NCBI GenBank assembly: GCA_905372035.1
Contig: CAJPNN010000002.1
Location: forward strand, 1,497-65,496
Reading direction: 5' to 3'
Source of the DNA: Bacillota bacterium
GTDB taxonomy: Bacteria; Bacillota; Clostridia; Peptostreptococcales; Anaerovoracaceae
Length of the DNA: 64,000 bases
A program made the translations under genes and the position numbers. Positions 24,966 to 50,200 of the stretch are shown here, one piece after another. Position 1 is the stretch's first letter. Every line of letters starts with the position of its first letter. Under the pieces are notes generated by a model. The model was not told the origin of the DNA and did not search any database. It worked only from the letters and a program-made list of their open reading frames with translations.

Positions 24966-25886
24966 CTACAAAAGACCTTCTTCTTCAGAAATTCCGAGCA
25001 TAATATTCATACACTGAACAGCTGCTCCCGAAGCTCCTTTCCCTAAATTGTCATATAGCGTATTTATACAAAACCTTTCGTCATTACCCGAAACCCAAAG
25101 CATGAGCCTGTTTGAACCGCTCATATAGTCAGACGGTATCATATCCATGCCTTCCGGCGACATTTCAAGTACTTCGATCATTTTACTGTCTGAATATCTG
25201 TCTTTATATATCTCCGTAAGACCTTTAATTCCGATCGCTTCTTTCATAATTGTTTTTTCGAGAGGCACAATAACCTGCATACCTGAATAATAATTTGCAA
25301 CAACAGGTGTGAATATAGGATATCTGTCTATCTTCGCCATTTTTTTCATTTCCGGAAGGTGTTTATGCATTTGCCCCTGTGCATACTGTTGCGGAGCCGT
25401 AAAGTTTCCTTCATGATATTTTTTTATAAGTCTCTTTCCGCCTCCGCTGTATCCGGTAATCGAAGTGCATGAAAAAGCATGGTCTTTAGGTACTATACCG
25501 TTGTCCGTAAGCGGTCTTAAAGATAAAATAAATCCCGTAGCATGACACCCCGGAGATGCTACCCTGAAAGCATTTCTTATTTTAGCCCTCGCATCCGCTT
25601 CAAGCTCCGGCATACCGTAAACCCATTTATCATCTGTTCTGTGTGCGGTAGATGTATCTATTATTTTTGCATTTTCCGGTGCAAGTTTCGCAATTTCTTT
25701 TGCTGCATCGTCCGGAAGACAAAGAAAAGTTATATCCGCTTTTTCTATATATTCCAATCTTTTGTCAAGGTTTTTTCTATCTCTGTCATCAATCTTTAAA
25801 ATTTCGAAATCATTTCGATCCTTAAATCTTTCAAATATTTTAAGACCGGTGGTTCCCTCCTGCCCGTCTATAAAAATTTTATACAT
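24966..25886 (-). CDS. argC: N-acetyl-gamma-glutamyl-phosphate reductase, short (type 2) form
   Basis: 306 aa. IFIDGQEGTTGL, SPGCHATGF active-site Cys region. First gene of argCJBD-carAB. Confidence 0.88.
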   Translation of the reverse strand: MYKIFIDGQEGTTGLKIFERFKDRNDFEILKIDDRDRKNLDKRLEYIEKADITFLCLPDDAAKEIAKLAPENAKIIDTSTAHRTDDKWVYGMPELEADARAKIRNAFRVASPGCHATGFILSLRPLTDNGIVPKDHAFSCTSITGYSGGGKRLIKKYHEGNFTAPQQYAQGQMHKHLPEMKKMAKIDRYPIFTPVVANYYSGMQVIVPLEKTIMKEAIGIKGLTEIYKDRYSDSKMIEVLEMSPEGMDMIPSDYMSGSNRLMLWVSGNDERFCINTLYDNLGKGASGAAVQCMNIMLGISEEEGLL

Positions 25887-26211: not shown

Positions 26212-29200
26212 TTATACATACTGAACCGGCTTTTTCCTGTTCACATCGTTAACATCTCTGTTATCTATTACGAACATCTTCTTGCCCATATGAGTAACAA
26301 GATATGTCAGATCTTTAAAGTCTACAACTCCGTCCTGGTTAAAGTCACAGTCAGCTCTATTCACTGTTACCGTTGCCGTAACCATAGCAGGCGCTCTGTT
26401 CATTCCTTCTCCGACAACTACTTTGGTGACTGAAATTGCAACTTTATCACCTTCGACTTCGACGGAAGCTTCAAGTTTATCAACTTTAGAAACATCATCA
26501 GTTTTTTCATCAAGTACATTTAAAGCATTTTCAGCAGTGACGTTGTCCGTGTCTGATTTAATATCAGTTGCAACAACACTTTCAAGTACTACCGACGTTC
26601 TTTCAATTCCGCCAATGCTTGTCGTCTTTATGATCGCTCCGGTGTCTTCGTCATAGGTTACGGTTACGGTATTCTGACCGTCCATGATCTTTCTGAACGC
26701 TTCCAGATCGGTTTCGTCTATAACATCTTTGCTGTCACCCGCATCTACAACATTTCCCGGCATCAAATCGAGCATTCCGAAGTCATACATAGCCTTAGCA
26801 AAAGTTCTTCCTATTTCGATATTGACGATCTTAAGCTTCAGATATCCCTTACGCTCTATTTCCATGCTGTAAGTTCCTTCCTGTCTAGGCTGTATCTCAA
26901 ATGCTCCGTCGGCTCCCACTTCATAATCCATAGCTATTCCGTCTTTTCCTGCAACAACCTGATTTCCTGAAGAATCAAATAACCTTATAACGGAACTTGC
27001 ATCCGGACCGTAAAGTCTAACCTTTCCTTTGATATACGTCTGTACGACAGCCTCCGATGCGGCAGTGTCTCTGATTACCGTAACTACATACTGACCCTTT
27101 CCGCCCGGATCACTTCCGGAAGCAGGCTTGTTTATTTCAAATATAAACTTGAACTCTTTTGTAGCAAGATCCAGATCAAACGCCTTTTTCATTTCTCTTA
27201 CCGACAATAACTTGTGTGCACTCTCTCCGTCTTTCTTCATAGAAAGATCCGCATCATCATTGCCCAGTATTGTAAATTCGATGTTTGTTTCAAGTGCTCC
27301 GACCTTTACCTTATAATCTCTCTTAAGCGGATCGAATCCCGGAATAAGTTTCTTGTAATCATCGTCAGGATCATCATCCGTAACGGAAATATCGGCCAGA
27401 TAAGCTGTATTCGCATATACTATCTCTACCATATACGTAGAAGGTGTAGTGCCTCCTCCTCCAACCGTCAGGAATACGAAGTTTCTCGTATCGTCTTCCG
27501 AAACAGGTACTTTTACAATCTTATTGTTCGAGTTTCCTGCGATATCCGTGCCGTTATAATTTACAACCACATTATCGGCAGGATTCTCCGCTACAGCCTT
27601 GAGATTTATCTCCTTCGTTCCTCTCTTGACGATTATCTTATGGTTCTTCGATTCAGGGTTGAATATGAAGTTTCCAATCTCTTCACCGTCGGTATAAGTA
27701 GGAACCAAGCTTTCAAGTCTTGCATTTCCGAACTTTCTCGCCTCTCTTGTAATCACGATCTCATAATTTCCGATCTTTCCTGTATTGTCAACAGCCTTCA
27801 GACGTATTACCGCTCTTGCATCATCATCTGCGAGGAAGTCTGCCGGAAGAACAAGATCCGGACTCTCAGCACCGCTTATTAACGGAATCTCTCTTCCGTC
27901 AGGAAGTACGGCACTTATTCTGTCGTCTGCGTTCTTTGCCGTTGCCGTGATCTTCACACTTCTATCCGTATAAGATATTACGGCTTCATATCTTCCTTTA
28001 CCTTCCGTGAACTTAGGTTTAAGTTCATATAATCCGTCTCCTTCCGCCGTTTCATCAGTCATTTTAAGATCCTGAAGTTCTATTTGAAGAATCGGCTCAT
28101 CGGTTCTCTCAACATGTAATCTGTAGTCTCCATGCTTTCCTTTTCCGTCATGGATTCTTACTACTACTTCAAAGTTCTTCCTATTGAGATTAAGACCTGT
28201 AAATGTTCTTGTATTTCCTCTTACGAAGTCTCCTCCGTCAATACTCATTTCGACATATCCGTCGCTGTATCCTATCTCGGAGTTTACGGTAAATTCTGTA
28301 GTATTGTTCGAAATCTTAACCGCATAATCTCTCAAAGTCTCCTTGAATTCAGGCTCCATAACGGCGTCTTGTACCCAGATCCTGTTCGCAATAGGAGAAT
28401 CGGTATTATAAACTTTCACATTATACTCGTTTATGTTTTCATAGCCGTTAGCGGAGAACTTCGTAATTCTGAACTTGAATACCGAGTAACCTTTTACCTT
28501 ATCTATGTTCTGTTCTATCATGCTTCCCAGATCTTCGACTACGGAATAAACTCCGTTTTCTTCGTTATAAAGCTCGATGAAACTGTTTTCGGTATCAGGT
28601 TCTGCAAACATATAAACCTTCTCACCGCCATTTGTTGCAGCATACTCGAACTTTTTCTTATCGAAGTTCGGTATCAGATCATTAGACGTAATCGTAGATC
28701 CGTCGTTGTTAAGCATTATCTTACTGATATACGGCTCAAACGGTTTATCCTTATCTTTATCAAGATAAAGAACATATACTTCTTCTGAAACCTTATCGCC
28801 TGATACCGCTCTTATATCAAATCTGTCTCTATCAGTATTTATCTTAACCGTGACAGCTTCTCCCGACTTGATCTTTTTGCCGTTTATGAAGTAATCCTTG
28901 CCGTCACCTGCTTGACCTACAGTAATCTTGGCACTTTCCGCACTTCTTGCAATTATTGCATTGCCTGCATTCTCCGTAGTTGCAAAGTCATATGTCGCAT
29001 TCTCTACCGCAATCTGATTTATGAGCTTTGTCTTAGGCTTATCCATCAGTGTCAACGAATACCTCTGTACCGAATTTCCGTTTGTAACGGTAACGATCGT
29101 CGTCTTCGTCTGTCTCGATGTAAAGTCTATAGTTCCCGCTCCGCTTATTTCCGCTCCGTCGGCTGCCGCACTTACCTTAAGCTCAACTGTGCTCATCGAC

Positions 29201-32200
29201 TCAGGAACGTAAGCGTAATAATTAATCTCTCTTGTATTGAATACTGTTGTAAGCTCTACATTTGAGAGTTCAAATCCCTTGAGATCAACATTTTTACCGC
29301 TCAGATCTCTTCTTGATACGGATAATGTATATGTTGATGATGCAACCGTCGCATTGCTGTCTTCAAAGACTTCTATTCTCAAATTCTTATTCGTCGTACC
29401 TGATATATCCACCTGCATATAATCGGTTCCGCTGAACACCTGTCCGTTTATCTTGACAACGTTCTTAGCTTCAAGTGCTGTAGGAAGTACTCCTATGGTT
29501 TTTACTCCGTAAGGAACCGTTACATAATAGCTGCTCTGATCCGTCCTGAATACAGGCGCCATAGTTCCTTTATCCACACTCAGATTCACAAGCTTAGCGT
29601 TATGATCTTCTGTAGGTCTTATTACTTTCACAATATAGTGAACCTTAGTATTCTGAGTCCCCATAGCGGCAGTTCCTTTAAGCACCACGTCTATGAAGGT
29701 TTCTCCATAATTAAGCTCCAGGTTCTGACTTTGTGCACCGCTCAGCACAGGCATATTGTTTATCGTTATATTCGATCCCGAATAAGGTATCAAATTGATA
29801 AAGTTTGTATCGGCATCCACCTTAACCTCATAATACTTGATATCCGAAGCAAACAACGGTGTAAGCTTATACTTGGCCTGCTTAACCTTGAGGTCGTCAA
29901 GTTTCACAGTTCCCGGTTTTTCAACGTCGGATCTGTTCACAATTATTGTGTACCACTTATTGTTGCCGTTATTGTCTTTAACCTCAACAATAATCTCATG
30001 GTCTCCCACTGTATTTAACGGAACGGTATATTTATTTCCTGCACCCGCATTAGCCTTATTTATAAGGACAGTGCTTCCAACGCTGTTAGGCAGAGTTACC
30101 TTAATATCTACAGAATCCTCACTGTTAGGAACGTTGAGGTAATAGCTGTTCACATTTTCCTTAAACGGAGGTGTAAGTTCATACCTGGTTCCCGCCTTGT
30201 TAAATGCTTCAATGTTTATTCCCTCGGCAACAGGATCATCCGTCTTATTTCTGAATACAGTTACAACATAATCTCTCGTTACTTTCGTTCCGTTCTTGTC
30301 AACAACAACTCTGAACTTAACAACCGACTCGCCGAATTTCACATTCTTATAGTTGAACACGTCTCCGGAGTTGACATCCATAACCTTCGTTCCGTCTACA
30401 TAAACTTCTACATGTCCGCTGTCAGGTGCTCTCATGATAGGAGTGAACCAAATATCTTGTGCATCGGCAGGATATGTTATGTAGTAGTTGGAAATATCAC
30501 TGTTGAATATAGGTGCAAGTGTTCCTCTCTTGTCGTGTTTCAAATCTACAAGTTCTGCCGTATAAGGCTCAACCGCTTTGTTTATATTGAGTACATAAAC
30601 CTTCTTCGCACCCTGTACTTCGCAAGTTATAACTATTCTGTTGTTTCCGGAAACAAGACGTATTCCGTTAGTCTTTATGAATCCTAATCCTTCTTCATCA
30701 TAGTCCCATGCTTCTGATCTCACCGAAATTACAGCCTTGTCATCCTTCGCCTCTATAGTGAGAGCGAGTTCCTCAACCTTGTTTGTAACCGACAGATTAT
30801 AACTTGTTATATTGCTGTCGAACAACGGTGATATTGACGCAACGTTTGTAGTTATACTCTTAAGGAGCGGATCTCCAACAACAAAATCAGTTTTTTCTTC
30901 AGCTTTTCTGTTTATTGTCAAGCTGTAGTATTTCTTTATAGTAGGCTTTTCTCCCGCATCTGCATTCACCAATGCCTCTATCAAATATACGTTATCGCCT
31001 ACATCAAACGTAATTTCTGTCGGGATTCCCGAATTTATGTTATTCTGCAAAGTCCATGTCTTTCTATCGTTCTCAAGCTTATAAAGTTTAGTGACAACGC
31101 TTGCTCCTACATCTCCTACAACCGCTGTGAGTTTGTCTTTTGTGACATTATTCTCAACCGTTGCAAAATAGTTACCGTCCTTTATACCTTCACTGAAATC
31201 TCTCGTAAGTTCAGTTTTCTCCAAACTTATGCTTGTAAGCCAATCAGTATCAGGATTCAGGTTGGACTCTTTATCTTTTCCGAAGATCACCGTATACTCC
31301 GCCAAAGGTACTCCTGATGATGTTCCCTTGTACTGTACCGAGAATACAACTCTCACTTCATCATTCGCATGTAACTGCTTGTCGATCAATACCAGAGAAC
31401 CGTTGCCGCTATCAGCTTGCTCACCGTTGACTATCTTCTTGTAGAACAGCTGGTATTGCTGATCTATAGGTGTAGCTTCAACGAAAACAGGGTCCGTTTT
31501 TTCATTCAGTTTCGAACTTATCGGCATATAATATGTCTGTATATTCTTGTCGAACATAGGTACAAGGTGATGATATCTGCGATCTTTTTCCTTTTCTCCG
31601 GTATAAACTCTCAAGTCTTTGAGCAGAGATGCCTTTGCCGGAAGCTTAAAGTTCACTCTCACCTTATAGATATTGGTCACTGTCTTATCTTCGGATGTAA
31701 CCTCAATCTCCATAATATTTATGCCCGGTTTTAAATTCTTAAGCGTAAACTCCGTAGTATTTCCAAAGCTGTTTACCGATGTATTATCTCTTATCTTTAT
31801 CGTAGCTTTAGGATGTTTTGCAGCTATCTTGTTAAACTTGACGCTGTCTTTTTCGACCGTCATCTCATAAACTTTGTTCTTAGGATCGAAGTCAGGTTTG
31901 ATCTTTGTCTCCGAACCGACATCAAGGTCAGATAACTCCGCTTCGTTTGAAAGTCTCTTTATGAGCAAGTCATAAGGTTTTTCAATTCCGCTTGCTTTAT
32001 CCTTAACCACAATCTTCACAAGAGATTCATTCTTTGAAGCATCGATAAGAATTCCGCCGGTAAATCTCTTCTCTGTTCCGGTATCAGGATTTTTATAGCT
32101 TCCCACACCGACTTTGACCTGTTTACCTTCTTTCATAGTCGTTATTCTTATCTTCGGTGAAAGTTTGAGATAAGGAATACCGATCTCAAATCTGTTCTCC

Positions 32201-35200
32201 GCACTGTTCCATGTAGCTGATATAGGATTTGCATACTTAAGCGCACTGTTCACAGGCGATGAAGGATCGAATGTTCCGTCTCCCGCATCCATGTAAACGC
32301 TCAGTATATCTCCGTCAGCTTCCACGACCTCCAGTTTGTAATTTTTTTCAACGACTACCGAACCGTCCGTTACAGCTACTTTAACAGCTACCTCGTTAAC
32401 ATTGCCCGGTATATTCTTTGTATCCATCTCCATAACGGCATAGTCTCCCGGATTTGAAATTACACCGTTATTCAGAGTTGCAACAGCCCTCGGATCATTT
32501 CCTCTTACTTTTATCTCAGCTTTCGATCCCGGAACCACATATGCCCTGAATGTATTATTTCCTACATATGCGGCGTTGTTTCCGTTAACGAGTACATCTT
32601 TTAAATCTACATCTATAGGTTTTCTGTAAATCGTAAGTTTGTAAGTCTCTACCGTACCGTTCTCACTCGTAACTCTTATTTCAAAGTTGTTCGAACCGTA
32701 AGCCAGAGAAACTTTTTCATTAATTTCTACAAGCTCGGATCCTATCTGATATTTATCAACACCGTTTCTGAATCCTAACAGAGTAACTCGGGTTCCCGCC
32801 CCTACGTGATCATGGTTCGCTCTTGCGTGTATCACGGCTTCTTTGTTATATGATTCCACATCCAGTGTATATCCTTTGACTTCAGGCTTAAACTCAGGCT
32901 CTATGTTATGGTCTTTAACACTGAGCTCCCTTAATGTCGCATCTGACGACGTTTTATGTATCACTACATAATATGTCTTAACAAAATTAGGAACCATCAG
33001 ATATACAGGTATTCTGGTATAGTCGTTTGAAACCTTTACATGTGCAGATACATGTTCTCCGCTGTCCTTTTGAAGAACTTCCACTCCGTTACCGAGAGGT
33101 TCCGCGTCACCGATCTTGATCTTTGTAGGATAGTTTGCAGCATCCAGACCTAACGATGTAAAGTATGCATCTACCGCCTTCTTGGTTTCAAGAGCCCATG
33201 CGGAAATATCGAATTCATTAACATCTTCGTTAAGTTCAACTTCATACTCGAGTATATCTTTTTTATACACTCCGTTCTTGAACGGTGCCGGTACACTGCT
33301 TCCTTTCTTCGTAACCTGAAGTCCGTCAAGGAATACATCCGCAGGTACATAGTGTATATAAAGCTCATAGTAAGATGATGATCCTGCTGTAATAGTTATG
33401 TTGAATCTGTTTGTTTCCGGAGGCATAGGATTGTCATCCTTCTTCCTCTCCAATCCGCCTACGGTAGCCTTGAGTCTTCCTGTTGAAGGATCAATTCCTC
33501 TCCATTCATTATCTGCACCGCCTGCCTCTTTGACTCTTACCATCTCTATCATTGAATTCTTATTAACTGCATAAATTTCAACATTTGCAGTTCCTTTGTC
33601 CGTACCGTTATGCTTAGGACTTCCATAAGAATATGCCTCGTATTTCACTCTTCCGTCAGCAGTTCCGTACTTAACGGCTTTGTGACCGTCAACATAGATC
33701 ACACCGAGGTTATTATCCTCCTGATCCTTTTTAACCGATACGGTATATTCTTTTATAAATTGTCCCGCCGCATCATAAACCTTTACAGGGAAGTTCGTAA
33801 GAACCCCGCCGCTCAGCGGAACTTTAGCCGTAGCAATCGGTCTGTCCACAGTAATCTTCTGCAATGCTCCGCCGTTTATAGAAAGCTGATATCCCTTCTC
33901 TCTATCCGCTACGGTAACTTCAACGTTCGCACTGTTTACGTTGAACGGAAGCGCATTCCTTCTGATATATGTATTTCCCGCTCTTTCAGTTATTTCATTG
34001 TTTACTCTGACTATGAGTTCATAATCATAAGTGTACTTTGAAAGATATAACTTGTATTGACTCTTCGCTCCCGACGGCGCCTGTACAACAACATTCACTT
34101 CCGTCACGAGAGAACTTGTAAGAGCCACTTCCGTTATATACTCACCCTTTCCGTCAGGATTTGCAACACCCTCTATACTGATTACGGCTTCAGGGTTTTT
34201 AGGAACAATCTTAACCGTAGCCTTTTCAGCAGGATGTGCCGCATCCTTGTTAGGAACGGATGCAAAATATGTAGTAAGACCTGTAACTGCTGCCGATTTA
34301 AATCTTTCTACAGGGTCGTCCACGCCCTTTACAAACATATCCTTTATCTCTGTTCCGTCAGGTATGCTGACAGCTCTGAGATAATAATCCTGTTCCGCTC
34401 CGCCTGTCTTTGAAATAACCTTTATCTTGAGGACGTATTCACTCTTGTCCGTAAGCATTCCTATCTTCTGTCCGAAACGAAGCTCACCTTTGACCGATTC
34501 ACCTGTAAGCGTCTTCATATCTTCATCGTAAAGCTGTATGATCGTGTCCGGATCTTCCGTCACAACTCTGAACGTAGCCGCTTCGGAACCCATAGGCATT
34601 TCCGCAACGTACTCGTTCATCTTAACAGGTGTAGCAGTAACAGGTGTAAGCATCATAGTTCCGGCAACTTGAGCTTTTGCCTCAACTATCTTAAGCGCTA
34701 TATTGTTTGAAGCCTTTTCGATGAACAGTTTATAGTTCATAGTGGCTCCGTCTTTAGCCGTAACTTTTACCGGAAGTACAATATTATCCGAACTCATGAA
34801 CGCCGTAGCATCGGCTTCACCGTTTCCGCTGCCTAAAACGGCTCCGTCCTGACTTATATCAATCTTGGAATCGCCGAAGTTTGTCTGCGTCTTGATATAA
34901 GCATACTTAACTACAGGATTTACGAACTTCTGATAGTTGTCTACCGTACGTTCTTCTCCGTCTATCACTTCTTTTGTCGTATTCTTAAATGAAGCTCTCT
35001 TATAGGTTCCGTTCTTTGTCTCCGCAACATTGAATACAAGCTGCAAGTCTGACCTTATTTCTTCCGGCTTAAGTCTTCTGATCTTAAGCTTTGTTTCTTT
35101 AATCTGATCAGGATCACCGGTAACGGAGTTCGAATCTTTTGATCCTACGTTTATTGAGAACTCTCTTTCATTACCTACAAGGATATCGTCAAAGCTAAGG

Positions 35201-38200
35201 TCTTCATATGTATCAGTATTCTTAACAAAAGGTCTGCTTCCGGAAACAAGCTGTATAAATTCTCCTTCTGCAAGAGTCGTAGCGCTCAAGTTACCCTTAA
35301 GCTCTCCGCTTCCTATATCTATGCTGAACTCATAATGATTATTCGGATTGACTTTTGCAAGACGTCCGTTCAGCTTAACTTCTTTAACCTTAAGTTCACT
35401 TGTTTTTCTGTGAAGAACTATGTTGTATGTTGCAGGTGTAGTATCGTTAGGAGTACTCTTTACCTGAACGGAATACGCCTTAGGTCCGTTTGCAAATTCA
35501 TCCTTGTCAAACGGCAGATTCACCTCGAGTTTGCTCTGTGCGGTGAAATCTCCATGTGGGAGACTCATACTTAAAACTGCTCCCGGATCATCCGCAATTA
35601 TATTCACAGGTACTATCTGTGAAGCATAAGGAACATCAATATCGATACGCTTGTTAACGTGATCTACTTTTCTTATAGTTTCAACCACTTCCCCGTTGCT
35701 GTTTTTAAGCTCTACCTTAAGTATCTTCCTGTTTTCGGATATTCTCTTTACCCTTACAACATAATCTTTACCTTCGGATTTTCCTGTTGCCATCTCGTCC
35801 TGAGATCTTACTTTGAAGTGGAAATCATAGCTTTGTCCCGGCTTCAAATTATTTATAAGCAGAGTCTTCTCTCCTACTTCATATTCATTCTTTCCGTTTA
35901 TATCCACTCCCGCATATTCATGATCCGCCTTGACTTTGATTTCAATAGTTCTGATATCATTTCCTATCTCGGCGACATACATGTTCTCTGCAGGGTCGAA
36001 GCTTGCAGGTGATGCAGAATCAAGTTTTCCCGCAGGTGCCACCCATACGTTCTTAACTTTTCTGTTATCATCCACCGTTCTGTAAATATCCAGTCTGTAT
36101 AACTTTCTAACACCTGTTTCGGATGTTACGGACATGGATACCGTTACAGGATTTTCGGAATTGGCATCTTTCGTATCGTAACTGTAGCTTGATCTGTAAG
36201 CAAGCTGCGGACTAGGATTTACAATTCCCGGTTCAAGTTCACCGTTCTCATCGGCGAGTCTTACAACAGTTTTTTCCGTATGCGTCTGAGCCTGGGCGGT
36301 AACATAAGTCTTGATATTCTTTTCAACTGAAAGCCTGTAGTCTTCACTTGATACAAAACCCTTATATACCGTTATCTTTTCTCCGGTAAAGCCGTCAACA
36401 TCTTCACCCGACTGAACAGCTCTTGTCGTATTCACACCTCTTATCTCTATAAACTCAATATTATTGTTAACTGAGGATACATCGATATGAAGTATATTGT
36501 CGCTTACTTTACGTCCTTCACTGCTTTCATCCTCTGAAATTACAGTATAAGGAATATCGAGATGCTTCTCTCCTTCTTTTATAGGAACAAGTATGCCCTT
36601 CACCCTGTCATTAGGATCGTCCGTTGCCCCTACATAAGTTTTACCTTTAAATACTATCTTGGCCTTAGGTGCAACCGTCTTCAAATACACGAGTGCATAT
36701 TTTCCTGCAAGAGGTTTACCGTCCAGATCTACCTGATCCAGTGCGGTTTCAGGCGTCTCAAATATATCAGTTATATGTTCATCCACTACGGTTTTCTTTC
36801 TGTACTCTTTGTTCACCGTAGATTCTCCGTAATCGATATCCGTATTCTGAGACTGTCTGTATATATGAACTCTGTAATAAGCCACCTGACCCGTCTTTGA
36901 TCTTGCAGTAAGTTCAAAGACGCTGTCTTCAGTATCTTCGGCAACCTGTGCCGGAGCGTTTATCGCAAGTTCCACATATGTATCATGAGCAAAGTCGTTG
37001 TTTATATAAACAGTTCCGCTCTGATCAGGCACATTGTTCATCAATGATACCACAGGTTCGTCTACACCGAGTGCATCCTTAAGTATCTTGAACCTTACGG
37101 TATTCGCATGCGATGACGGCACGCCGAAGTAGAAGTTGTTATAAACATGACCGTCAGCTTCAAGCTTAGGTATTGATTCTTTAATAGCAACATCATCTAC
37201 CACAGGAATTAATTTGTTATTATTTGATTTCTGTTTTATAAACAGATTATATGTAGCGACAGTTCCTATAACCCCGTCATCTCCGAGTGTCGGTTCATGC
37301 GGATTTGCAAGGTCGTTAGGTACTCCCACCTGCACTTTGACCATTGTCGTCGATGCATCTTCCGTATTAAGCGGAAGCACCTGGTAAGTATTCGTCGCCT
37401 TCACCCATTCAAGCCAAACTATATCAGGATCATCATTGGCATAGTTCGATGCCTTCCTCAGATATTCGGCATATGAACTGTCCGTACTTGCCGGCTTCTT
37501 AAGAACACCGATCCTTACATACATATCTCTAAGCGTAGTATTTGCAGTAACGCTCACATTGTCTTGCGGCAATATGTCTACATGATAAGCCCCGTCTCTA
37601 TATTCCGCATCCTGATTGCCTTGAAGCGCATTATAAATTATCAGGTTCTTGAGCGAAACATCAGCTTTATGTACGTGAAGCTTATGTGCCGCTATGGTAC
37701 CGTCCGTAGCTCTCACGCTTATATCTATGACAAACTCATTTGCCGCCATAGGAACATCTGTAAGTTTATCCTGATGCTCTTTATATGTCACATGGCTTCC
37801 GACTTTAACGCCTGCCATAAGTGATTTGGAAATCGCCTCAATATCCACAAGTGACGCCGTGGACGGAACCCAAACATGGTATTCACCGTCTTTAACCTGT
37901 GCCGCTTGTGAAGTTTCTTTTCCGTTTTCCTTATAATAAGCCTTTATGCTTTCAAGCTCGGTATTTGAAGTCTTCTTGTAAACCCTCAAATAAGATACTT
38001 TTATTTCCTTTGAGTCCTCACTCTTTGTCTTTATCTCAAATACCGTAACTTCTTTATCCGCAAGTCTGAATTTGTTTACGGACCATACGTTAAGATCCTG
38101 TTCAACAGGGTCCGGAGCGGTATCCATACCTCCCGTGATCTTTGCAAACGCATTTGCGGTTTCCGCATAAATATTTGTAATTACCGGTGTGCTGAAGTCG

Positions 38201-41200
38201 CTTACCGCATCCTTAAGTATGTATGTATAAACATCATGTTCCTTGCCGTTTATAGTTTCAACCTTCTTAGTATTTACAAGGTTTTCACTGTCATCCACCT
38301 TGAGGGTCTTGATGCTGTCGTCAAGGTTCTTTCTGGTTAATTTAACAGTATATCTCGTCACCTTAAGATCAGGATCCGTAACATCGATCGGAATGTAAAT
38401 ATCCTTTATCATAGTAGAAATTGCAAGCGAATTTATCGTCTGCTTATATGTGTCGTTATCTACTCTGTTGATCTTTAATATAGCATTCTTATTCAATGCT
38501 CCCGCACTTATTTTTATATGATCTGACGAATTTGAAATAATCATGTTGTAGGTGTTTGAAGCATCTTTTTTAAGCTCCGTTTCACCCGCACCCGCATCAA
38601 CCTTGACATAGTCAAGACCTGTCTGATAATCAGGTGTCCTTATGATCAGCTTATACGATGCGCTGCTCTGACCGTTACCCGATGTCACAACAATCCTGTA
38701 TTCATCAATCTTAAGTGCATCGATTTGAAGAGCATCATCGGACCAAACATTTGATATCCCGGACTTTGATACAAGCTCGTTATTGTCTTTATAAAGCTTG
38801 ACCGTACCCGCAGGTGCCTTTATCACAACTTTAGCCGTTGCATTCTCCATCGTAGGATAAGCCGACTCATCCAGATATGCTGTATATGCGCCGTTCTTAT
38901 ACTCTATAACGGTATCGTTTACAGCGACCTCATCAAGCCTTGCAACTCTGTTTTCTCTTGATATCACAAGGTCATAATTCTTCTTGGTATTGTCGGTTGC
39001 AACAACAGTTATTACTTTCTTTATTTCCTTCTGATCGAGAGGCAGAGAAACATCAGCGTTAAATTCTCCCACCTGAGAGTCGCTCACACCTTCAAGACTT
39101 ATCTTCGCTTTTTCGTTGCTCGACTTGATATAAAGTGCAAGATCCTTCAAATCATCTCTTACATAAAGCACATATTTGGTATTCTTGTCAGGATCCGTGC
39201 TTGAAACCTTGTTTGCAACAGTCTCGTCAGGTAAACCTTTCTGACCGATTACTTTGACGATTTCAGCATCGCTGTTTCTCTTAGCCATGGTTAAATCATA
39301 AACCGCCGTATCCGTTCCTCTTGACGCAACGATTTTATATTTGTTCACAGGATCGGTCAGGTTGGAAAGCGCTACGTCTATACTTTCCGCTCCGTCAGCT
39401 ATCGCATCAGGATTTCCGACTTTGTAAAGCTTCAAGTTTACATCGGAGGAATTTGCAACTACAGTAAGCTGCCCCTTTGTATCCGCTGCAGGCATCAAGG
39501 TATAGTAATCTCCCTTGCTGTCCTTTTCCACTTCTCTTGCGCTGTTTTGGCTTTCCGGCTTAAACAGTACGCTCGACAGGTTAAGACGATTATCCTGCTT
39601 CGTTATTATAAGTGAAGCGTTTACTTTCATATCATCTGTAAACGGATATGTGCTTACAACCAGCGGAACTACCGTTTCTCCTACACTATTGAGTTTTACC
39701 GATACGGTATCCTCATGGATCTTCTCCGCATTTCCCGCAATCTTAACTTTAGCCGCAGTACTTGAAGCTGTCAGTGTAACATCCGCCGCCGAAGCGTTAG
39801 GTTTAACCTGATAATAATATTTATCTCCCTGTTTAAGGGCATCATTTCCATTGACCTTTACATTCTTAATCGTGCTTATTCCCTTAACTATGAGCAGCTT
39901 ATAATCTTTCTTCGTTTTTCCGTCTCTTGCGGTCACGTTGAAAATAAGCTCCGTTACATTTCCTGCACAGTGACACGATGCCGTAAGCACTCCGTCAATT
40001 GAGTTTATTCCTTCGAACAGGATCTTCGACTGTGCATTGTTAGCCTTTATCTTAAGCAATCCGGTCAAAGTTTCAGGAGGAACGTTTACGATATAAGTGG
40101 ATTTATCCCAATCCGATATCTTGGCTTTCTTTCCTGCAAATTCAACCGACTGAATTCCCGTATCGGCTCCCTGAGACACACTTATTATTATTCTCTTAAC
40201 TTCGCTCTCAGCCGATCCGTCGGAAGCTGCCACCTTAAATCTGTATTCCGTATCTCCTACAGCATTTATCGGAAGATTTTCAAATATACTCAATCCCGTA
40301 CCGATCTTCGGTGCATTTTCCGATATTCCGTTACCCCAAAGTGTTATCTTTGAGAGTGCGCCTACAGGTTCTATTGAAATATCTACAGGCTTTCCTATCT
40401 CAACCTGTGCGGCAAATATGCCGTTTTTCTCTTCAATCTTTTTGCCGTCAACATGCAGACTCTTGATTCCTATCTTCTCCAGATCTCTGTAAACGTACAA
40501 AGTATAATCCTGCTGTGCATTTCCTGAAGATGATATTACTCTGAATCTGAATATATTAACAGGGTTTGATTCAGGATCACCGAGCTCTCTCGTTACATTG
40601 AGCTCCCCTTTAGCCTTCTCGCTCGTAGGCTGCTCATTTTCAAGCATAACGATATCCGCAAAACCGTTTTGAGTATTTATTCTTATCTTCGCAGGATTGC
40701 TGCTGAGCAAGTCGTTCGCATCAACTTTCGACGGTATGGAAATCTCATATATCGTAGGGTTGTTCGATCTCGCCTTTGCAGTTCCTCCGTTAACCGTTAC
40801 TCCTGTGAGTGCGGTATTGTTACTGTTCTTGAAGATCTTAACACTGTAATCTCTGAATGCATTAGGTGTTCTCTCGGCATCAACATACATTTCGGCGTCC
40901 ACTCTGAATCCGATAGCCGTCTGTTCTCCGATCGAAAGTTTGTAATCTTCGCCGTTATTGTTCCAATCTCCTGCCGGAACGGTAACCTTTACACCGTTGA
41001 CATATGTTATATATGCACGACTGTTTGCGACAAATTCTACAGGAAGCTTATTAAGGCTGTTATCAACCTTAAAGATGTATTCCTTTCCTTCGTTTATAAC
41101 ATCCGTACCTAAAACATTGTTCACTTTTACTCTATGAACCGAAATATCATCAGACATACCTCTCAACAGGAGATAACGTTTTCCTATAACCCCGCTGTGC

Positions 41201-44200
41201 GATTCTATTTCTATTCTGTAGTATTCTACAATTCCGAGTTTTACACCACCCTTTAAGATGAAGTTTCTCGTTCCGTCAGGCGCAGTGTCGTTATCCCATT
41301 CAGCCGCCTTGAGTACATCCGTATATTCCGCATCGTCATTAGGTGCAACAACTCTTCTTACACTCAATATCTTAGCGTTTTCATCATTAGGTCTGATCTC
41401 AATCTTGACATTTTTTTCAGGAACATACGAATCATACTGTATGTCTTTATCCATCTTTACGTTGAAGTGTGAAACTTCTCCTCTGTTTGTAACTATGCTC
41501 TTGAGAGAAACATCACCCTTCTTTCTGAGCATATTCAAACTGTAGGCTTTGATATCTCCGTTTTCGGCCCTTACTTCAACTGAATATTTACCTTTATTTT
41601 CATCGGCATTTATATTTCCTGCAAATGTCGAATCGTGCTGTGATGTCCAGTCGGAACCGATCCACGCTCCGGCTTTATCATAATATCCCACTCTCAAAGT
41701 AGCCTTGCTTGCAGGTACTACGGTCAATCCGAAGTCTTTGTTATCATCTCCGAAGTAGAATGAGTATACTTTATCTCCTGTCACAGGATCCTGTTTTTCC
41801 ATCGCAGGAACATTTGTAGTTGTCTCGAAGATCTTTAATATACCGTTATCTCCGCTCCTCCTTGTGAGGTTCAGAGTATACCAGCCTTTTCCGTTTACGG
41901 TTGCCGGCGTACCGTTTTGTGCCGTAACATAGATCTTTACAACAGCTGAATCTCCGTCAACATTTATAAGCTTTGATGTAACTTTGACATCTACAGGAGG
42001 ATTTGTCTCTATTCCGACCTTGGCAAAGTCATCTTCCGCTACTGCCTGGATATTTGCCTGCTTTTCTTCATATGACAAGTAACCTTCAAATGTATTTGTT
42101 GCGGTATTCCAAACAGCTTTTCTTCCGTTCACCTCAACCGTGATCTTCGTGCTTCCGCTCTTAGCCTTGAATATCAGCGGAACGATTCTTTCATAAGCCG
42201 AATCTTTAGCCTTGAGCCTGATATTAAACTTAAGTCCGTCAGGGTTGTTAGGATCAAGTTTTGAAATATCAAACCCTCTTACCACAAGCAGATTGCTTCC
42301 GCCGTTAGGTGCAACAATGTTTCCGTCAAGCGATCTTATCTCAGGAAGCGCATTTTCCGTAGCCTGGAGAAGCACGTCAGCCGATACTGCCCCGTTATCC
42401 ACATATGCTACATAGTTTCCTTTGCTGTCCGGTTTGATCACCGTACTGTTCACCTTAACTGAAGTCAAGCCCAAATCAAGATCGGAAACCGTCACATAAA
42501 TCTTGTACTCCTTGATATCTCCGCTCTGAGACTTAACCTTCATAGGTACTATAAACGTATCAGGGGTTCCGTCATTATTTGCATCAAATGTCTTGTTTGT
42601 GAGTACAACCCTCTTAGTATAAACTCCGTCGGCATCCACACTTGAGAAGTCACCGCCGTCTATACTTACCTCGGAAGTCTTATCTTCCGGTCTTACGCTC
42701 AGAAGCTCAGTATATATAAGCTTGTTCGGATCAGCCTTATCTACAGGTATAAACACATTATATATACCGTAAGGTTTACCGTTATGAGTTTCTAAAGACT
42801 CGGTCGTATCTTTGTTTTCGTAAGAAGTTCCGATATTTGCGATTACCTCTTTAACTGCCGTATTGTTGCTCTTCATTCTAAGCACCAATCTGTACTTTGC
42901 AGGTGTTTTATCGTCATCGCTCTTCTTAACCGTTATATTAACTGTCGTCTCTTTGCTCTCAAGAGCTCTGTAAAGATAAGTGTTAAGTTCTGCCGCCTGC
43001 CCCGTGTTCGCCTTGTTATTTACAGAAGCCGGTGAACCGTCCTTATCACTGTAACCGTCTATGGTAACTATATAGTTGTTGTTCGAAGCGATCGCCTTTA
43101 TGCCTGCATGTGACGCCTTTGCATCCACATACGCTTCATAAGAACCGTCATTCTTGGCAGTCGGCGCTTTTCCGTCAACCGTCAGAATAATTCCGTAATC
43201 CTGTGCAAGTCTCTTCAGAATCAATCCCGCAGCCACTGCAGAATTACTGTCTGTCGCTTCTTTATAAAGTTTGACGCCGATTTCTTTTTCACTTTCCGAA
43301 ACAGGCATATAAACCTTTTTCTCGTTCTTGGAAAGCTTTCTGTCTCCTCCGTCGATTTCAACATAATAGTTTATTAAAGTTCCCTCCGCTCCTACAAGTA
43401 ACTCCGAAGCATTAGGCAATACCGTGTCATATATGTAATTTGTTTCCGATACTGTAGGGTCTTTCGCTTTATCTCCGTTTACGGTAATCTTCTTTATCGC
43501 AGGAGCAGTCTCGTCTCCGATTATGGTAAGAGTTATAGTTCTCTTCGTATTTCCCGACTGAGATTTGATCTCAAACGTCAGAACCTTGTTTGCAGTCTGC
43601 AAGTCCATATCGGTTATAACATCACTGTATATACCCTGTTCATATCCCGAACCGTTAAGCTTAAGTATGCTTGCAAGTTCATCATATGTCTTTATCGTAA
43701 ATGCCGCAAACTTGGTAGTGTTAGGTATTTTTACCTCCCACTTGCTGTTATCGTTCGTCGGCTTAGCATAATACTGACCTACTTTTATGTAATCTATTTC
43801 GGTATTTTCGGACTTGGTCCTTATAACCAGATAATACGTTTTGCTCGTATAGCCGTCCTCCGCAGTAACAGTCACTCTGAACCTGTTTATATCGGACTTG
43901 GTATCAAGACTTACATCATCCCAAACTCCGCCACCTTTAACAGCCTTACCTATCTCTTCATAGCTGTATTCAACAGGTGATTTGCCCTTGGCCGGAATCA
44001 TTCTCTCCAGTTTTACCGTCGATTCAGGCTTCACGGAAATCAGGGTTATGTTCGCCTTGCTGTTAAGGACATTCGTATTTGCAATATATGTATAAGTATC
44101 CTTTGCACCCTTGGTGAGCGATGTTTCGTCAACCTTAACGGATGCCAGATCCATATTCAGATCCACCTTCTTGATTATAAGTTTATAGCCGTCTTCTTTT

Positions 44201-47200
44201 GTCAGCTTGTCCGATGCCGTAACGGATATAGGAACAGTGAACTCGTTACCCAGTTCCATAGGGTAGTTATTTCTTGTTCTTGCACCTGTAATATTATCAA
44301 TAGAGTCGTAAGCTCCGCCTATAAGTATCTCATGAACCTCATAGCTGTTAGGAGTTACTCTGATATCAGCTTTCGAAACGTCTCTTCCGACAACGATATT
44401 GTACTCAAGCGGATTGAGCTTATTGACAACAGCTTCTCTTGCAACTCCGTCAATGATAAGCTCCACTTTTGTAACTGCGGTGTCTCTCGCTGCGGTCTGA
44501 ACTATGATCTTGTAAGTCCTTATCGCACCGTTCTCGGCTTTCACATAGAACGGTATCTCCAATCCCTTATTGAGATCGGTTCCTGATATATCATATCCCG
44601 GCAGCATTATTTCATTGTTGTCGCTATATAAAGCACCATCCGAACCGAGAGGATTTGCAAATCTGTCAACCGCCACCTTTGCAAACGGACTGTTGGCTTT
44701 TATTCTTATAGGAAGTTTGCTCGTTCCCTCCGCAACCGAAACTACATAAGCTCCTTTTGCCGTATTATAACCCACAGGTCTGTCCATATCATTTATTCTG
44801 ACAAGTTTAACATACCCGTTAGGATCAATAGTATTATCATTTGATTTCGGTACTATTCTCAGCTTATAAATCTTTGTCGCCACTCCCTCTTCGGAAACAA
44901 CTTTTATTCTGACTACAGGCTGATCGTTCATCAGTTTAATAGTCTTTAATGCCCTGTTCGTCTCCGAAGGATCAGTATTTTCATTTACGAAATCTGCAGG
45001 AACGGTTCCGTTTGCGATACCGTCGTTTATAGTTACAGTAGCGGAAGGAGATGTTGCAACAACTTCAATCTGTACAGTTGCTCCGTTATTTATATCCTCC
45101 TGATCTACACCGAGATAGTAATCATACTCCGAAACTCCCTCAGGCGCTTTGACCGGCTTACCCGCATATTTAACATTTGAGATCTCTCTTATAGTATAGA
45201 TAGACGTATCGGAAGAAGCCGCCTCGATTATAAGGTTGTATTCCTTAACAGGATCTATTCCGTCAGGACTCTTAACCGATATCTTTGTTACAGTTTCCTT
45301 TGCTCCCGTCGCAGGATCCACCAGAGTAAAGTTCTTATAGACAACTGACGGTGCTTCGCCCGTTACGAGAGTGTCTTCTTCAGGCTTCTTGTAATCTCCC
45401 TCATCTCCTACTCTTATATATGCATCTTTGTTGTTAGGAATTACTTTGATCCATGCGCCTTCTTTATCATAAGGAACTTTTACTCTGTAAGTTGACGTAT
45501 TCGCATCATATTTTGCAATTTGCTTTCCTGATGTCGTCTGTACTATAACTCCGTCATTTATTATCGTCTTATCCTTTGAAAGTTTCTTGATCTTTACTGT
45601 AAATGTCTTCGTTGTTCCGTCCTGAGCTCTTACATGTATATACTTAACCGTAGCTTCAGGTTCATTTGCCTTGACATCCTTCATTTCCGCCTTGTTCCCG
45701 GCTCCGTTTGCGATTTCAAACGTCTTGCTGTCGGAAATCGTCACTGCCGCAAATTTATCTTTAGTTTCAGCAGTAAGAGTTCTCACCGTATTGTCCGATC
45801 CGTCGGCTGAACGAGGCAACAAGAAATCATAGGTGCTTTCATCGGCATCTAAATTCAGCTTATGTTCACCGAATTTCACATCCAGGTCGACATTTGAAGA
45901 CTGCCTTATAACTATGATCTTATAAGTAGCCTTGGCATAAACACCTGTAACGCTGTCATGTACTTTCGGTGTAACGGTAGCAAAATATGTAATTTCATTC
46001 TGGAGAAGCTCTTCTTCAACGGTTGCGGAAGGTGCTCCCGCAGCATTCTTGGCCGTGTCTTCATTCTTATCCAACGCGATAAGTGCTCCTCTTGCCATAG
46101 GGTTTGCATTAAGCCTTATCTTCTCGACTTTGCCTTTGACTTTTACTATATAAGCATCTTTCTCATAGTCATAAACCGCTTTAAATTCTTCTCCTGCAGC
46201 TCCTGTAGCTTTTATTATTTCATCAGCTTTAACTTCTCCCAACCTGTTGTCGGAATCCTCATTGTACAACCTTAGGATATATCTGTTGCCGTCATTTGCC
46301 GACTCTCCGTCAGGAATAACGTGTATATCTATATCCTGAGTTCCGTCAGGCCCGAAGTTCACTCTGATATTCTGAATGCTCGCATTGAGCGAAGGCGCTG
46401 TATCTCCTATCTTGATATATGATCCGTATGTAGCCGTAGTAACCATAACTCTTGCGGAATCCGCCGTCTTGTCCACCTTATAGCGATAGATTCCCTGAAC
46501 TCCCGGCATCTTCTCTTTCTTCACATAGTTGGCATTTACGTATACCATAGGATCTTCAGCTTTTGAAAGTCTGTGTATTCTCAAAGTATATTGAAGACCT
46601 TCGTTTCCTCCCGCCTTAAGCTGGACCACAGCCGTATCCGTTCCGCTCTTATCCGCAAGAACAAAGTCAGGATATACCCCGTTCACAACCTTGGAATAAT
46701 CCAAATCTCTGTTAGGCGCAGCCGCTTTATACTGAACCTGTGCCTCACTGAGTTCTCCTATTGTTGTAATATCCACCGACTTAACGTCTTCCGGAAGATA
46801 AACATCATAGTGAAGATCATCCGTCATAACGGCTCTGTAAGTCTTTCCGTTTGCAACGCCCTTGCTTGTTGCCGTGATCTCTTTGATAGCCGTAGCCGCC
46901 TTCTTCTTATAAATAGTAAGCAGATAGCTCATGCTCTTATTATTATCCGCAGTTATATTTATAGGAACGGTGACCATCTTATCGTTTTCATTAAGAGTCA
47001 CTGTCTGAACATCAAAGTTCTTAGGATGTTTATGCGCCTCATCATGATCCGCATTTACCTTCTTGTTGTTTACCGAAATGGTAGATGCAAATCCACCCTC
47101 TCCGTAAACATATATCTTGAGGTTTTGTGTAGCATCATCTACAACGGTAAAGTACTGGTTCGTATTTCCTATTTGTATAGCATTCTTTATACTCGTTATG

Positions 47201-50200
47201 CTGCCGTCTTTAAACTTCGTATGATCAGCCATATAATCTATGCCGCTTTGAGATGTATCTATCTTAAGGGCTTTAAGGCTTACATCTTCCGAAAGTATCG
47301 TAGCGACAAGTTTATATATTCCGTCATAATAGTTGATATTATCAGTTTCATCATGATCATCAGGTCCGTCAGGAATACCCGCATTGTGTATCCTTATATA
47401 GAACATCTCTCTGATCTTGCTGACAGGAACGTCCGTGAACTCGAAGTACCCTTTGTACTTATCTCCCGGCGTGGAGTTCTTAGATTTATTTCCTATAGGC
47501 GTTCCGTTCTTATCCTGAAGCGTAATATCATCCGTATTTACCTTACTCTTAACACGAATTACGGACTTATCTCCCTCAACCATAACCTGAACGCCGTAAA
47601 TTCCTTTTATACCCTTCAAGTTGTAGATTATATTTCCGTTAGGAAGAACTGTCTTTTCATATTCGTCGCTGTCAAGGAATCCCTTTGTAACAGCGTCATT
47701 TACCGCAAGATCCTTAGCCACGACGTGTTCCATGATGATCTTGTCAGGTCTGATCAGATCAGGATTTACCACCTGTATCTCAGCCTTTGCAACATAACCT
47801 GAAACTTTATCGGTTATAGTAAGAAGTGCGGTACCCTCTTTAACTCCGAGGAGCTTCTTATTGTCAATCTGTCCTGTATTAGGATCATTAAAGAATCTTG
47901 CTATATTACCTGTTCCGGCATTAGCACCGTGAACATCTTTCTCATCCGTTATCTCCCATTTATATTCTGTCGCATTCGGTTCTATATCTCTGAACATATT
48001 GAACCTTGATGCCGTAAATTCAACATTTTCGGTTCCACCTGCAGCAATTCTGAAGCTTTCAGGCATTATCTTCATCTGTTTTCCGCTGACTAAAACAGGA
48101 GAATATTTATATGAGTCTTCAACATTTGTGAATTCTCCGCTTTCTCCGCTCTCTCCATTACCGAGCTGACCTTTATCGTTTACACCGAACGAGTACAGAT
48201 AACCGTCATTCTTGAGTACATATGAAGCTGCTCCTCCGGCCGCAATGAATATCGCATTTCTGTTGAAATATGTAACCTTAATCGGTTTTGTCTGCGAATA
48301 TCCCGTCTCTCCGTTCGCTCTTCCGACTCCGAGACGTCCGTAATCTCCGTCACCCCAAGCATATACATCGCCTTCTTCAGTCAATGCAATATTATGCGTA
48401 GCTCCTACATCAAGATCCAGTACGCCTCCGAGATCTTTCACAAGTGTAGGTCCGATCACAGGATTTTTATCCCCTGTTCCGAGCTGTCCTCTTGCATTAT
48501 CTCCCCAAGCTATAACTCTTCCGTCATTAAGGAGTGCCAAACTGTGTGACAAACCGTTATATACTCTGCTTATCTGACCCTCGAACTGACCCATATTTAT
48601 TCTTATAGGTGATCTGTAGCTCTGGTTACTGTGTTCTTCGGAACTGATCTGCTTGTTGTTGTTAGCTCCCCAAGCCCATACAGTTCCGTCATATCTCAGA
48701 ACTATGTTGCAGTTTCCGCCTGCGCCGAAACTTATATCAATGATCTTGTTTATACTCTTCACTCTTACCGGAACTCTTTCGAAATCCTTCATAGATCCGG
48801 TTCCGAGCTGACCGTGACTGTTATCTCCGAATGTATAGATATCGCCTCCCCCGGTCAGAATCACGCTGTGATCTCTTCCGCCGAGAATCTTTCTTACATT
48901 TGAGATATTAGGAAGCATGGTCGGTGTATATATAGCATTTTCGAGACTGTCAAGACCTGTCTGACCTCTCTGGTTCGATCCCCATACATAGACTCTTCCG
49001 TCCGCATCAATTGCCAATGAATGGAATTCTCCCGCAGCTACCGAAACGATCTTCTTTCCTCTCAGTGCTATGATTTCCGTAGGTTCGCTCTTGTTTCCGA
49101 GAACATTATTTCCGAGACCCAGCTGACCGTAAGCATTTCCACCCCATGACCAAACCGTTCCGTCCGCTCTTATCGCAAGCACATGTGCATTACCCGCGGC
49201 AACCATAGGCATAGCCTTGAATTCTTCAGGGATTACCCTTACTATACATCTCGACTTCATTCCGCCTTTTTCAACGATAAGCTTTGCAACACCCGGATTT
49301 CTCGCAGTTATGTTTCCTAACGGATCCACTATCGCAACTTCCATGTTGCCTATTGTAAATTCCGCTTTCGTATTGTTTGAAACTACATCGCCGAATATGT
49401 TGAAGTCATTTCCGCTGAAAGTCTTAACGAGATATTGTTCTCCGACTCTTAACAGGATCTCCGATTCCTTTATAAGTTGTTTTCTCTCGCCTATTCTTAC
49501 AGGTACATCGCTTAGGGTTTCGTTGAATTCTAAGTCCGCTCCCTGAGAATAGTCACCGAATCCGTATACATTTCCGGCATTATCCACGGCAACACTGTAT
49601 CCCGTTCCCGCACTTACTGATGTCAATACGATGTTGTCATCTGTAAACTTGGTATTTCTGATAAATGCACTCTTATTTAATTTATCGCCTACTCCGAGCT
49701 GTCCGTAATTATTCGCTCCCGAAACATATGCTTCTCCGTCTCTGTTCATAGCGACGGTATAATCTTCACCTGCGGAAACCTCGGAAATATATGTGAGCGT
49801 ATCCACCTTGGAAGGTGTCGACGAACTTCCTTCTCTTCCGAGTTGTCCTTTGTCATTCTTTCCGAATGTAATGAGATCTTCTCTGAATGTGACAACCGCA
49901 CTGTGAGCTCCGCCCGCACTTATCGCTACCGCCGAGCTTACCTTGCTTACCTTTGCAGGTCTGTAGATATATGTAGAAGCACCTTCCACTCCAAGTCTTG
50001 CATTTTCATAATTTCCTGCCGCATAAACTTCACCCGTAGATCTTAAGAACAATGAGTGTTCATTTCCTGCGGATATGGCAGTTACACTGTTTATAGGTAC
50101 AAGTGCAGGTTCTTCAAGGTATACGAGGTTATCCGAAATTCCGAGCTGACCTCTGCTGTTATCTCCCCAGCTGTAAACGTTTCCTCTCTTATCAAGCGCA

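Follow-up and report, generated by a model that had tools for sequence, protein, structure and literature searches.

A putative type II-like X-dockerin with a linker insertion at the C-terminus of a giant RCC1/cadherin-like protein of Clostridia

How might a giant protein that ends without a familiar surface signal be retained by its cell, and can two calcium-loop motifs lying 110 amino acids (aa) apart at its C-terminus belong to one docking module? These questions are raised by a 64,000-nucleotide (nt) stretch of DNA (hereafter the window; contig CAJPNN010000002.1 of assembly GCA_905372035.1, positions 1,497 to 65,496) from a bacterium of the Clostridia, family Anaerovoracaceae. A minus-strand open reading frame (ORF) was identified at 26212..63975, and its reading frame runs on without a stop as far as the edge of the window (63999), so that the encoded giant protein comprises at least 12,595 aa and its N-terminus lies beyond the window. 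A preliminary description of the sequence had located two loop-helix motifs, an insert between them and a 21-aa tail, all with coordinates and peptides that proved to be exact, and had left open whether these represent a split dockerin or two isolated EF-hand loops. Our analysis favours the split dockerin, based on a match to the Dockerin_1 family after removal of the insert, continuous alignments to X-dockerins (XDocs, consisting of an X-module and a dockerin), AlphaFold models, and a relative (P0005) in which the same repeats are only about 10 aa apart. The last 281 residues are very probably a homologue of type II XDocs that carries an insertion in its linker. In order, they consist of a beta-sandwich, loop-helix 1, the 110-aa insert, loop-helix 2, a 21-aa extension and the stop codon (Table 1).

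The gathering score of Dockerin_1 was passed only after the 110-aa insert had been spliced out, and the dockerin signal was otherwise visible only through profiles. In Pfam searches, the intact tail gave no match to Dockerin_1 (PF00404) even at E<=10 and yielded only sub-threshold matches to CarboxypepD_reg (E=0.016) and EF-hand_1 (E=0.033). With the insert removed, the 89-aa remainder scored 26.0 bits on Dockerin_1 (cut-off 22.9; E=1.1e-5), covering profile positions 8-52 of 57 in one stretch and hence both repeats. Of the scans proposed in the preliminary description, the one with Dockerin_1 was in this way positive only for the spliced tail. Dockerin_1 also scored above the EF-hand models on the spliced sequence; the EF-hand families (PF13499, PF00036) stayed below threshold, with 14-15 bits for EF-hand_1 (cut-off 25.4) and 12.6-13.5 bits for EF-hand_7 (cut-off 30).

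Comparison with solved structures established the homology to XDocs. With the intact tail, alignments to two XDoc chains, 4wi0_B and 4u3s_B, came as a pair of collinear pieces, one over the X-module and one over the second repeat (E=0.0055), and the spliced tail aligned to 4wi0_B, the XDoc of Acetivibrio cellulolyticus ScaA, in a single piece that takes in both repeats as well as the X-module (E=4.1e-5). A profile built from nine spliced family members found 4wi0_B (1.2e-13), 4u3s_B (1.3e-12) and 2b59_B (1.9e-12), followed by 3kcp_A, 5g5d_B and 5k39_B, and continuous single alignments spanned the X-module and the dockerin of all of these chains. The top structures of this profile are all type II cohesin-binding XDocs (A. 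cellulolyticus ScaA, Clostridium thermocellum CipA and CipB), with type I dockerins far behind at about 1e-4. The type III XDocs of Ruminococcus flavefaciens (CttA and ScaB) were considered as closest relatives and rejected, as they were absent from sequence and fold matches and the top ranks were taken by type II XDocs. The module had initially been compared with canonical type I dockerins. The departure in spacing stands, since the motifs lie 110 aa apart and dockerin linkers typically measure about 8-23 aa, i.e. the short linker of dockerins is absent here, but the type II XDoc is the closer reference.

A further adjustment concerns the beta-sandwich, which had been labelled as a CarboxypepD_reg-like domain. 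The Pfam match to this family remained sub-threshold (E=0.006-0.016, 16-17 bits, cut-off 32.3), but the label is appropriate for the fold: the type II X-module is a seven-stranded sandwich similar to the immunoglobulin (Ig)-like domain of carboxypeptidase D (PMC5141474). The sandwich is part of the docking unit rather than a separate spacer.

Two duplicated loop-helix segments (F-hands) are present in the tail and both were modelled with helices (H115-125 and H247-255 in tail numbering). Repeat 2 has the canonical loop pattern D-x-N-x-D-G-x-x-D-x-x-D followed by a helix, and is the segment matched by EF-hand_1 at E=0.033. The loop of repeat 1 is four residues longer than the canonical loop, and the counterpart of the repeat in alignments is the first F-hand of ScaA's XDoc, where a four-residue loop insertion likewise occurs at the same place (PMC5141474). 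Since the more distant relatives P0014 and P0021 show a canonical GDV(D/N)xDG at the corresponding position, repeat 1 descends from a dockerin repeat. Repeat 1 of P0021 matches Dockerin_1 profile positions 1-23, and in the relatives the first half of the profile matches repeat 1 and the second half matches repeat 2. The 21-aa extension falls past the end of the alignment to 2b59_B and takes the form of short strands in the model, at high confidence. The solved type II XDocs stop before this extension, so that it may serve as an extra buttress or interface.

Table 1. Position and description of the giant ORF and of the features of its C-terminal tail within the window.
Feature	Position	Strand	Description
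Giant ORF	26212..63999	-	About 5,300 aa of RCC1/WD40_RLD propellers interspersed with Big_2, then about 7,000 aa of Cadherin-like (PF12733) sandwiches, then the C-terminal XDoc
X-module	26767..27045	-	Seven-stranded Ig/transthyretin-like sandwich; tail residues 5-97 (of 281); matched in alignments by the X-modules of 4wi0_B, 2b59_B and 5k39_B
Dockerin repeat 1	26677..26766	-	Extended 16-residue Ca loop NVVDAGDSKDVIDETD and helix 1 (ETDLEAFRKIM); loop-helix PGNVVDAGDSKDVIDETDLEAFRKIMDG, residues 12414-12441, at 26677-26760
Insert	26347..26676	-	110 aa in the inter-repeat linker; Thr/Val/Asp/Glu-rich; one aromatic residue; bracketed by TVTVT and TATVTV
Dockerin repeat 2	26278..26346	-	DFNQDGVVDFKDLTYLVTHMGKK; canonical loop DFNQDGVVDFKD and helix 3 (LTYLVTHMG); aligns to the second F-hand of 4wi0_B
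C-terminal extension	26215..26277	-	Family-specific 21 aa, ..IDN....NR....Y.; N266 invariant, NR..Y pattern kept across nine relatives
Stop codon of giant ORF	26212-26214	-	

Structure prediction of the 281-residue tail, which had been suggested as a way to see whether the two loops pack together, agreed with the alignments. In the AlphaFold2 model, the predicted local distance difference test (pLDDT) was mostly 77-90 for the X-module (one 10-residue block at 62), 63-77 for repeat 1 and 77-89 for repeat 2 and the 21-aa extension, and it fell below 50 nearly throughout the insert (segments 130-141 and 145-232). In a Foldseek comparison with the PDB the top seven matches were all type II XDoc chains, of which 5k39_B, 4u3s_B and 5m0y_B were aligned over 267-269 columns, i.e. 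across the insert, with target-normalised template modelling (TM) scores of 0.63-0.66 from which the predicted packing of the halves was judged. The model of the relative P0006 gave the same top matches (TM 0.61-0.68). Its pLDDT was mostly 85-95 in the X-module, in both repeats, in the linker (modelled as helices) and in most of the C-terminal extension (mostly 88-95 in the extension, lower at the last residues).

An exhaustive search of 1.84 billion representative proteins resulted in 24 matches at E<=0.001. Nine of them share one architecture, established as cadherin-like repeats, a 'KVKVIRD' junction, the X-module, repeat 1, a variable insert, repeat 2 and the conserved C-terminal extension. 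Word-indexed searches, for which the tail, P0006 and the family profile served as queries, found nothing beyond self-matches and P0027. Judging from these sequences, the XDoc module forms a family in uncultured Clostridia, where it ends cadherin-like and RCC1 giant proteins. The same C-terminus was found in seven independent metagenome assemblies and can therefore not be regarded as an assembly artefact; with 0-3 substitutions these copies are too similar for a comparison of selection on the insert and on the repeats. The locus is present in samples ERZ21659798, DRR582136, DRR582184, DRR582188, SRR27599745, SRR27599793 and SRR31188332. The inter-repeat linker is a family-wide insertion hot spot of about 10 to about 430 aa. 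It measures about 10 aa between the same two repeats in the closest relative P0005 (about 43% identity), which is unsplit, about 45-60 aa in P0006, about 108 aa in the window protein and 254-432 aa in other family members.

The inserts of most relatives consist of 24-35% Asp and Glu, up to 38% Ser and Thr and only 10-15% hydrophobic residues, a composition that suggests disorder. The inserts of P0021 (29% hydrophobic and 8% aromatic residues) and of the window protein differ in composition and could hold some structure. When searched alone against Pfam, the window insert had no match. Since phmmer searches at maximum sensitivity gave non-significant scores only, it was rejected as a duplicate of sequence elsewhere in the protein and as kin of the relatives' inserts. 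A short island, V(L/M)(G/A)(A/V)YDE(D/N/V), is kept after a poly-Ser tract in the low-complexity inserts of P0007, P0010 and P0017, with the variant AAYEDEN in P0009, and resembles VTVTYDEDTG at the start of the window insert (26638-26676). Its role could be that of a linear motif, or it could belong to the dockerin linker helix. The ends of the window insert encode VTATV (26368-26383) and TVTVT (26656-26671), and on the DNA level they constitute a 16-nt inverted repeat (88% complementary, 272 nt apart) that is probably a by-product of Thr-Val codons. On the protein level the insert ends may pair as a beta-ribbon stalk.

Some further observations were made on the relatives and their genomic surroundings. 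P0010 (4,260 aa, with the same split XDoc end) is encoded on a 114-kb ENA contig (L089:1-22783), 294 nt downstream of a called 27,395-aa gene, and the two may form a single gene, encoding more than 31,000 aa, that is broken by a stop codon or a sequencing error. P0006 and P0027 (L088; L092:2858-4186) are small secreted proteins with a common N-terminal domain of about 230 aa (73% identity), which is fused to a split XDoc in P0006 and to a different sandwich and a canonical unsplit dockerin in P0027. This domain of P0006 was checked as a possible cohesin; there was no Pfam or PDB sequence match, and the AlphaFold model was uninformative (pLDDT about 30). Relatives also adjoin non-cellulosomal dockerin proteins, namely a Peptidase_S8 protein with Dockerin_1 (E=3e-9) at L093:4640-6598 and two tandem dockerin proteins on L092, where positions 1570-2877 encode a dockerin protein of 435 aa. 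The lineages of the giant-protein relatives thus have a wider dockerin repertoire.

The best described systems for comparison are the type II XDocs of cellulosomes. The XDoc of A. cellulolyticus ScaA (PDB 4U3S, 4WI0) is the best sequence and profile match over the X-module and both F-hands and is among the top folds; like the module described here, it forms the C-terminal end of a surface protein that is non-enzymatic and very large. In contrast to the window protein, its inter-repeat linker is short and without the 110-aa insert, and it has no conserved 21-aa extension. ScaA is moreover a cohesin-bearing scaffoldin with known partner cohesins (ScaB; ScaD and ScaF are also named as anchoring scaffoldins), whereas the carrier in the window is an RCC1/cadherin-like giant protein without cohesins. 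The XDocs of C. thermocellum CipA and CipB (PDB 2B59, 3KCP, 5G5D, 5K39, 5M0Y) are likewise among the top folds (profile E 1.9e-12 to 1.6e-6). The linker of CipB has 23 residues that form a small helix (PMC5141474), compared to about 110 aa in the window, and the first loop of CipA and CipB has the canonical length of 12 residues, which is extended to 16 here. Their hosts are cellulolytic and possess known SLH-anchored type II cohesins. CipB itself is a non-scaffoldin protein of unknown function that is attached through a C-terminal XDoc (PMC5141474) and in this respect sets a precedent for the carrier described here.

Long inter-repeat regions have been described from other dockerins. The group 1 dockerins of R. 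flavefaciens have an unusually long one, with an insertion sequence in group 1b (PMC2930009), but at 37-45 aa it is much shorter than in the window (110 aa) or in its relatives (up to about 430 aa), and these dockerins are enzyme-borne, lack an X-module and are not among the closest matches. Giant 'Dockerin-type' proteins of Omnitrophota have a predicted dockerin-like fold with two helices separated by an insert (bioRxiv 10.1101/2023.11.21.568195), a likeness drawn from the description of the fold. The Omnitrophota insert folds confidently as a CBM35-like barrel, and the unit recurs many times within the protein, whereas the window protein, from a different phylum, carries only one XDoc, at its terminus, whose insert is hypervariable and modelled at low confidence. 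Since the Omnitrophota helices flank such a barrel, split dockerin folds are not without precedent, though they differ in kind. The carrier protein itself resembles, by description, the RCC1-type giant proteins of Oscillospiraceae from gut metagenomes, which are extracellular proteins of gut Clostridia with RCC1 repeats and were reported without transmembrane anchor regions (bioRxiv 10.1101/2023.11.21.568195). These were described as a single repeating domain, and the preprint mentions neither a cadherin-like half nor a terminal XDoc.

The window protein also appears to lack a conventional anchor, as the preliminary description had stated for its C-terminus. No LPXT[GAN] motif was detected in the giant protein and no membrane-spanning segment was found, the highest 19-residue Kyte-Doolittle mean being 1.39 (usual threshold about 1.6); Pfam identified no SLH, cell-wall-binding, sortase-signal or cohesin domains in the visible 12,595 aa. 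We propose that the terminal XDoc would take over this role. By analogy with the type II systems CipA, CipB and ScaA (PMC5141474), the Ig/transthyretin-like X-module would pack against a dockerin of two Ca2+-binding F-hand motifs and stabilise it, helices 1 and 3 would form the cohesin-binding face, and the XDoc would bind, non-covalently and in a Ca2+-dependent manner, a type II-like cohesin carried by a wall-anchored protein whose gene lies elsewhere. The insertion of about 100 aa would loop out of the fold, with the two halves still uniting as one dockerin, and would leave the linker on the side opposite the cohesin-binding face, where it would behave as a passive spacer. Binding of the XDoc to its cohesin would thereby tether the giant RCC1/cadherin-like protein by its C-terminus. 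We estimate the probability of this complete account, an XDoc with a linker insertion including cohesin-mediated anchoring, at roughly 60%.

Several points weigh against this account. On the side of the fold, the AlphaFold2 model of the tail is built on an alignment of only 11 sequences, the Foldseek root-mean-square deviation is 8-9 A over the long alignments of the window model (6-9 A across both models), and the predicted packing of the two F-hand halves against each other rests on TM-scores of predictions. Loop 1 departs from the usual pattern by an N at position 1 and by additional residues, which makes Ca2+ binding there uncertain. The insert was predicted as low-confidence beta-hairpins with 31% hydrophobic residues and, going by the model, may fold as a small domain with a function of its own instead of being a passive loop. 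On the side of the partner, no cohesin (PF00963) was found in the 21 other genes of the window, in the giant protein or in the genes flanking four relatives (L089, L090, L092, L093). In many cases, as reportedly noted by Peer et al. in 2009, dockerin-like modules are found in genomes that have no cohesins. Little can be read into the missing cohesin here, however, because only about 26 kb of the genome outside the giant gene were examined. Finally, the N-terminus beyond the window could carry a different anchor.

The idea could also be taken further, in that the module might represent a distinct split XDoc class. The linker would then be a dedicated insertion platform (about 10-430 aa, including the conserved short island ..YDE(D/N)..), the tract inserted there would serve a purpose of its own, for instance as a brush (glycosylated or acidic), as a reservoir of Ca2+ or as hidden length that is released under force, and the module would anchor the protein via a non-cellulosomal cohesin-dockerin system. 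We consider this possible but doubtful. Rather unlikely is a genuine XDoc fold that operates without any cohesin partner, as many non-cellulosomal dockerin-like modules may do, and that would be either a Ca2+-stabilised structural cap or a binder of some other target, for example a polymer of the wall, a ligand of the host or a second copy of the giant protein. The lack of cohesins in the window, in the giant protein and beside the four relatives would be in line with such a function, as would the 21-aa extension, which is conserved yet absent from solved XDocs and could form a different interface, and the proximity of relatives to other non-cellulosomal dockerin proteins such as the S8 protease. 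The homology, however, is specifically to the cohesin-binding type II dyad, including the X-module that stabilises the dockerin for cohesin (PMC5141474), and the 26 kb surveyed outside the giant gene limit what the missing cohesin can tell.

An improbable alternative is that the XDoc does bind cohesin but does not anchor the protein to the producing cell. The giant protein would be held by its N-terminus or secreted, and the XDoc would plug into another scaffold, cell or extracellular assembly. This would be compatible with an N-terminus located beyond the window, with the several dockerin proteins of the relatives, which suggest a larger network, and with the fact that the carriers of the cited C-terminal XDocs, scaffoldins or proteins resembling them, hold further partners as well (PMC5141474). 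In characterised type II systems, however, the XDoc is found at the cell-proximal end and bound to anchoring scaffoldins (PMC5141474), and RCC1 giant proteins of this kind were reported without a transmembrane anchor (bioRxiv 10.1101/2023.11.21.568195). Finally, two isolated EF-hand-like loops, or a dockerin decayed by the insertion and without docking function, would account for the failure of the intact tail on Dockerin_1 with EF-hand_1 as its only loop match (E=0.033), for the non-canonical loop 1 and for an insert far exceeding the described linkers (longest 37-45 aa in the R. flavefaciens survey, PMC2930009), but are very improbable given that both halves, the X-module as well as the C-terminal extension are kept in nine divergent relatives despite unrelated inserts, that the module is near-invariant in seven assemblies, that the spliced sequence passes Dockerin_1 and that the models resemble whole XDocs across the split.

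With regard to the remainder of the giant protein and its locus, Pfam matched only RCC1/WD40_RLD, Big_2, HL_N-beta and Cadherin-like domains over the whole protein. In other samples, every contig of about 52 kb ends within the RCC1 part and encodes a truncated giant-protein product (12,150-12,171 aa). The genes adjoining the giant ORF are housekeeping genes (argC/J/B/D/F, carAB, queF, mreB, rnfCDGEAB, and pyruvate:ferredoxin oxidoreductase), and a terminator scan 3' of the giant-ORF stop codon found none. The ArgC protein encoded at 24966-25886 of the window had a best match of 53% (Sinanaerobacter and metagenome-assembled genomes of Acutalibacteraceae) among 185,579 GTDB species representatives. 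Such a low match, yet with a near-unchanged locus in at least seven metagenome assemblies, points to a recurrent Clostridia lineage without a GTDB representative.

Our results support a sharpened description of this module as a type II X-dockerin with a hypervariable linker insertion that ends a family of giant RCC1/cadherin-like proteins. A dockerin linker can accordingly hold from about 10 to about 430 residues with both Ca2+ halves conserved, which makes it look like a permissive insertion site within a very strong protein-protein connector that might be of use in engineering. For genome annotation it follows from the lack of a match with the intact sequence that standard Dockerin_1 scans miss such modules. 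The terminal type II XDoc offers a concrete and testable mode of attachment for giant RCC1-type proteins of gut Clostridia that have been reported without a recognisable anchor, and the question of how they are retained on the cell becomes a direct search for the cohesin partner. Should the module indeed represent a split class of its own, it would be an anchor holding some of the largest known bacterial proteins (at least 12,600 aa here and, in one relative, possibly more than 31,000 aa) at the surface of uncultured gut Clostridia. If the cohesin-mediated account is true, cohesin-dockerin anchoring would extend from cellulosome scaffoldins to non-cellulolytic giant adhesin-like proteins.

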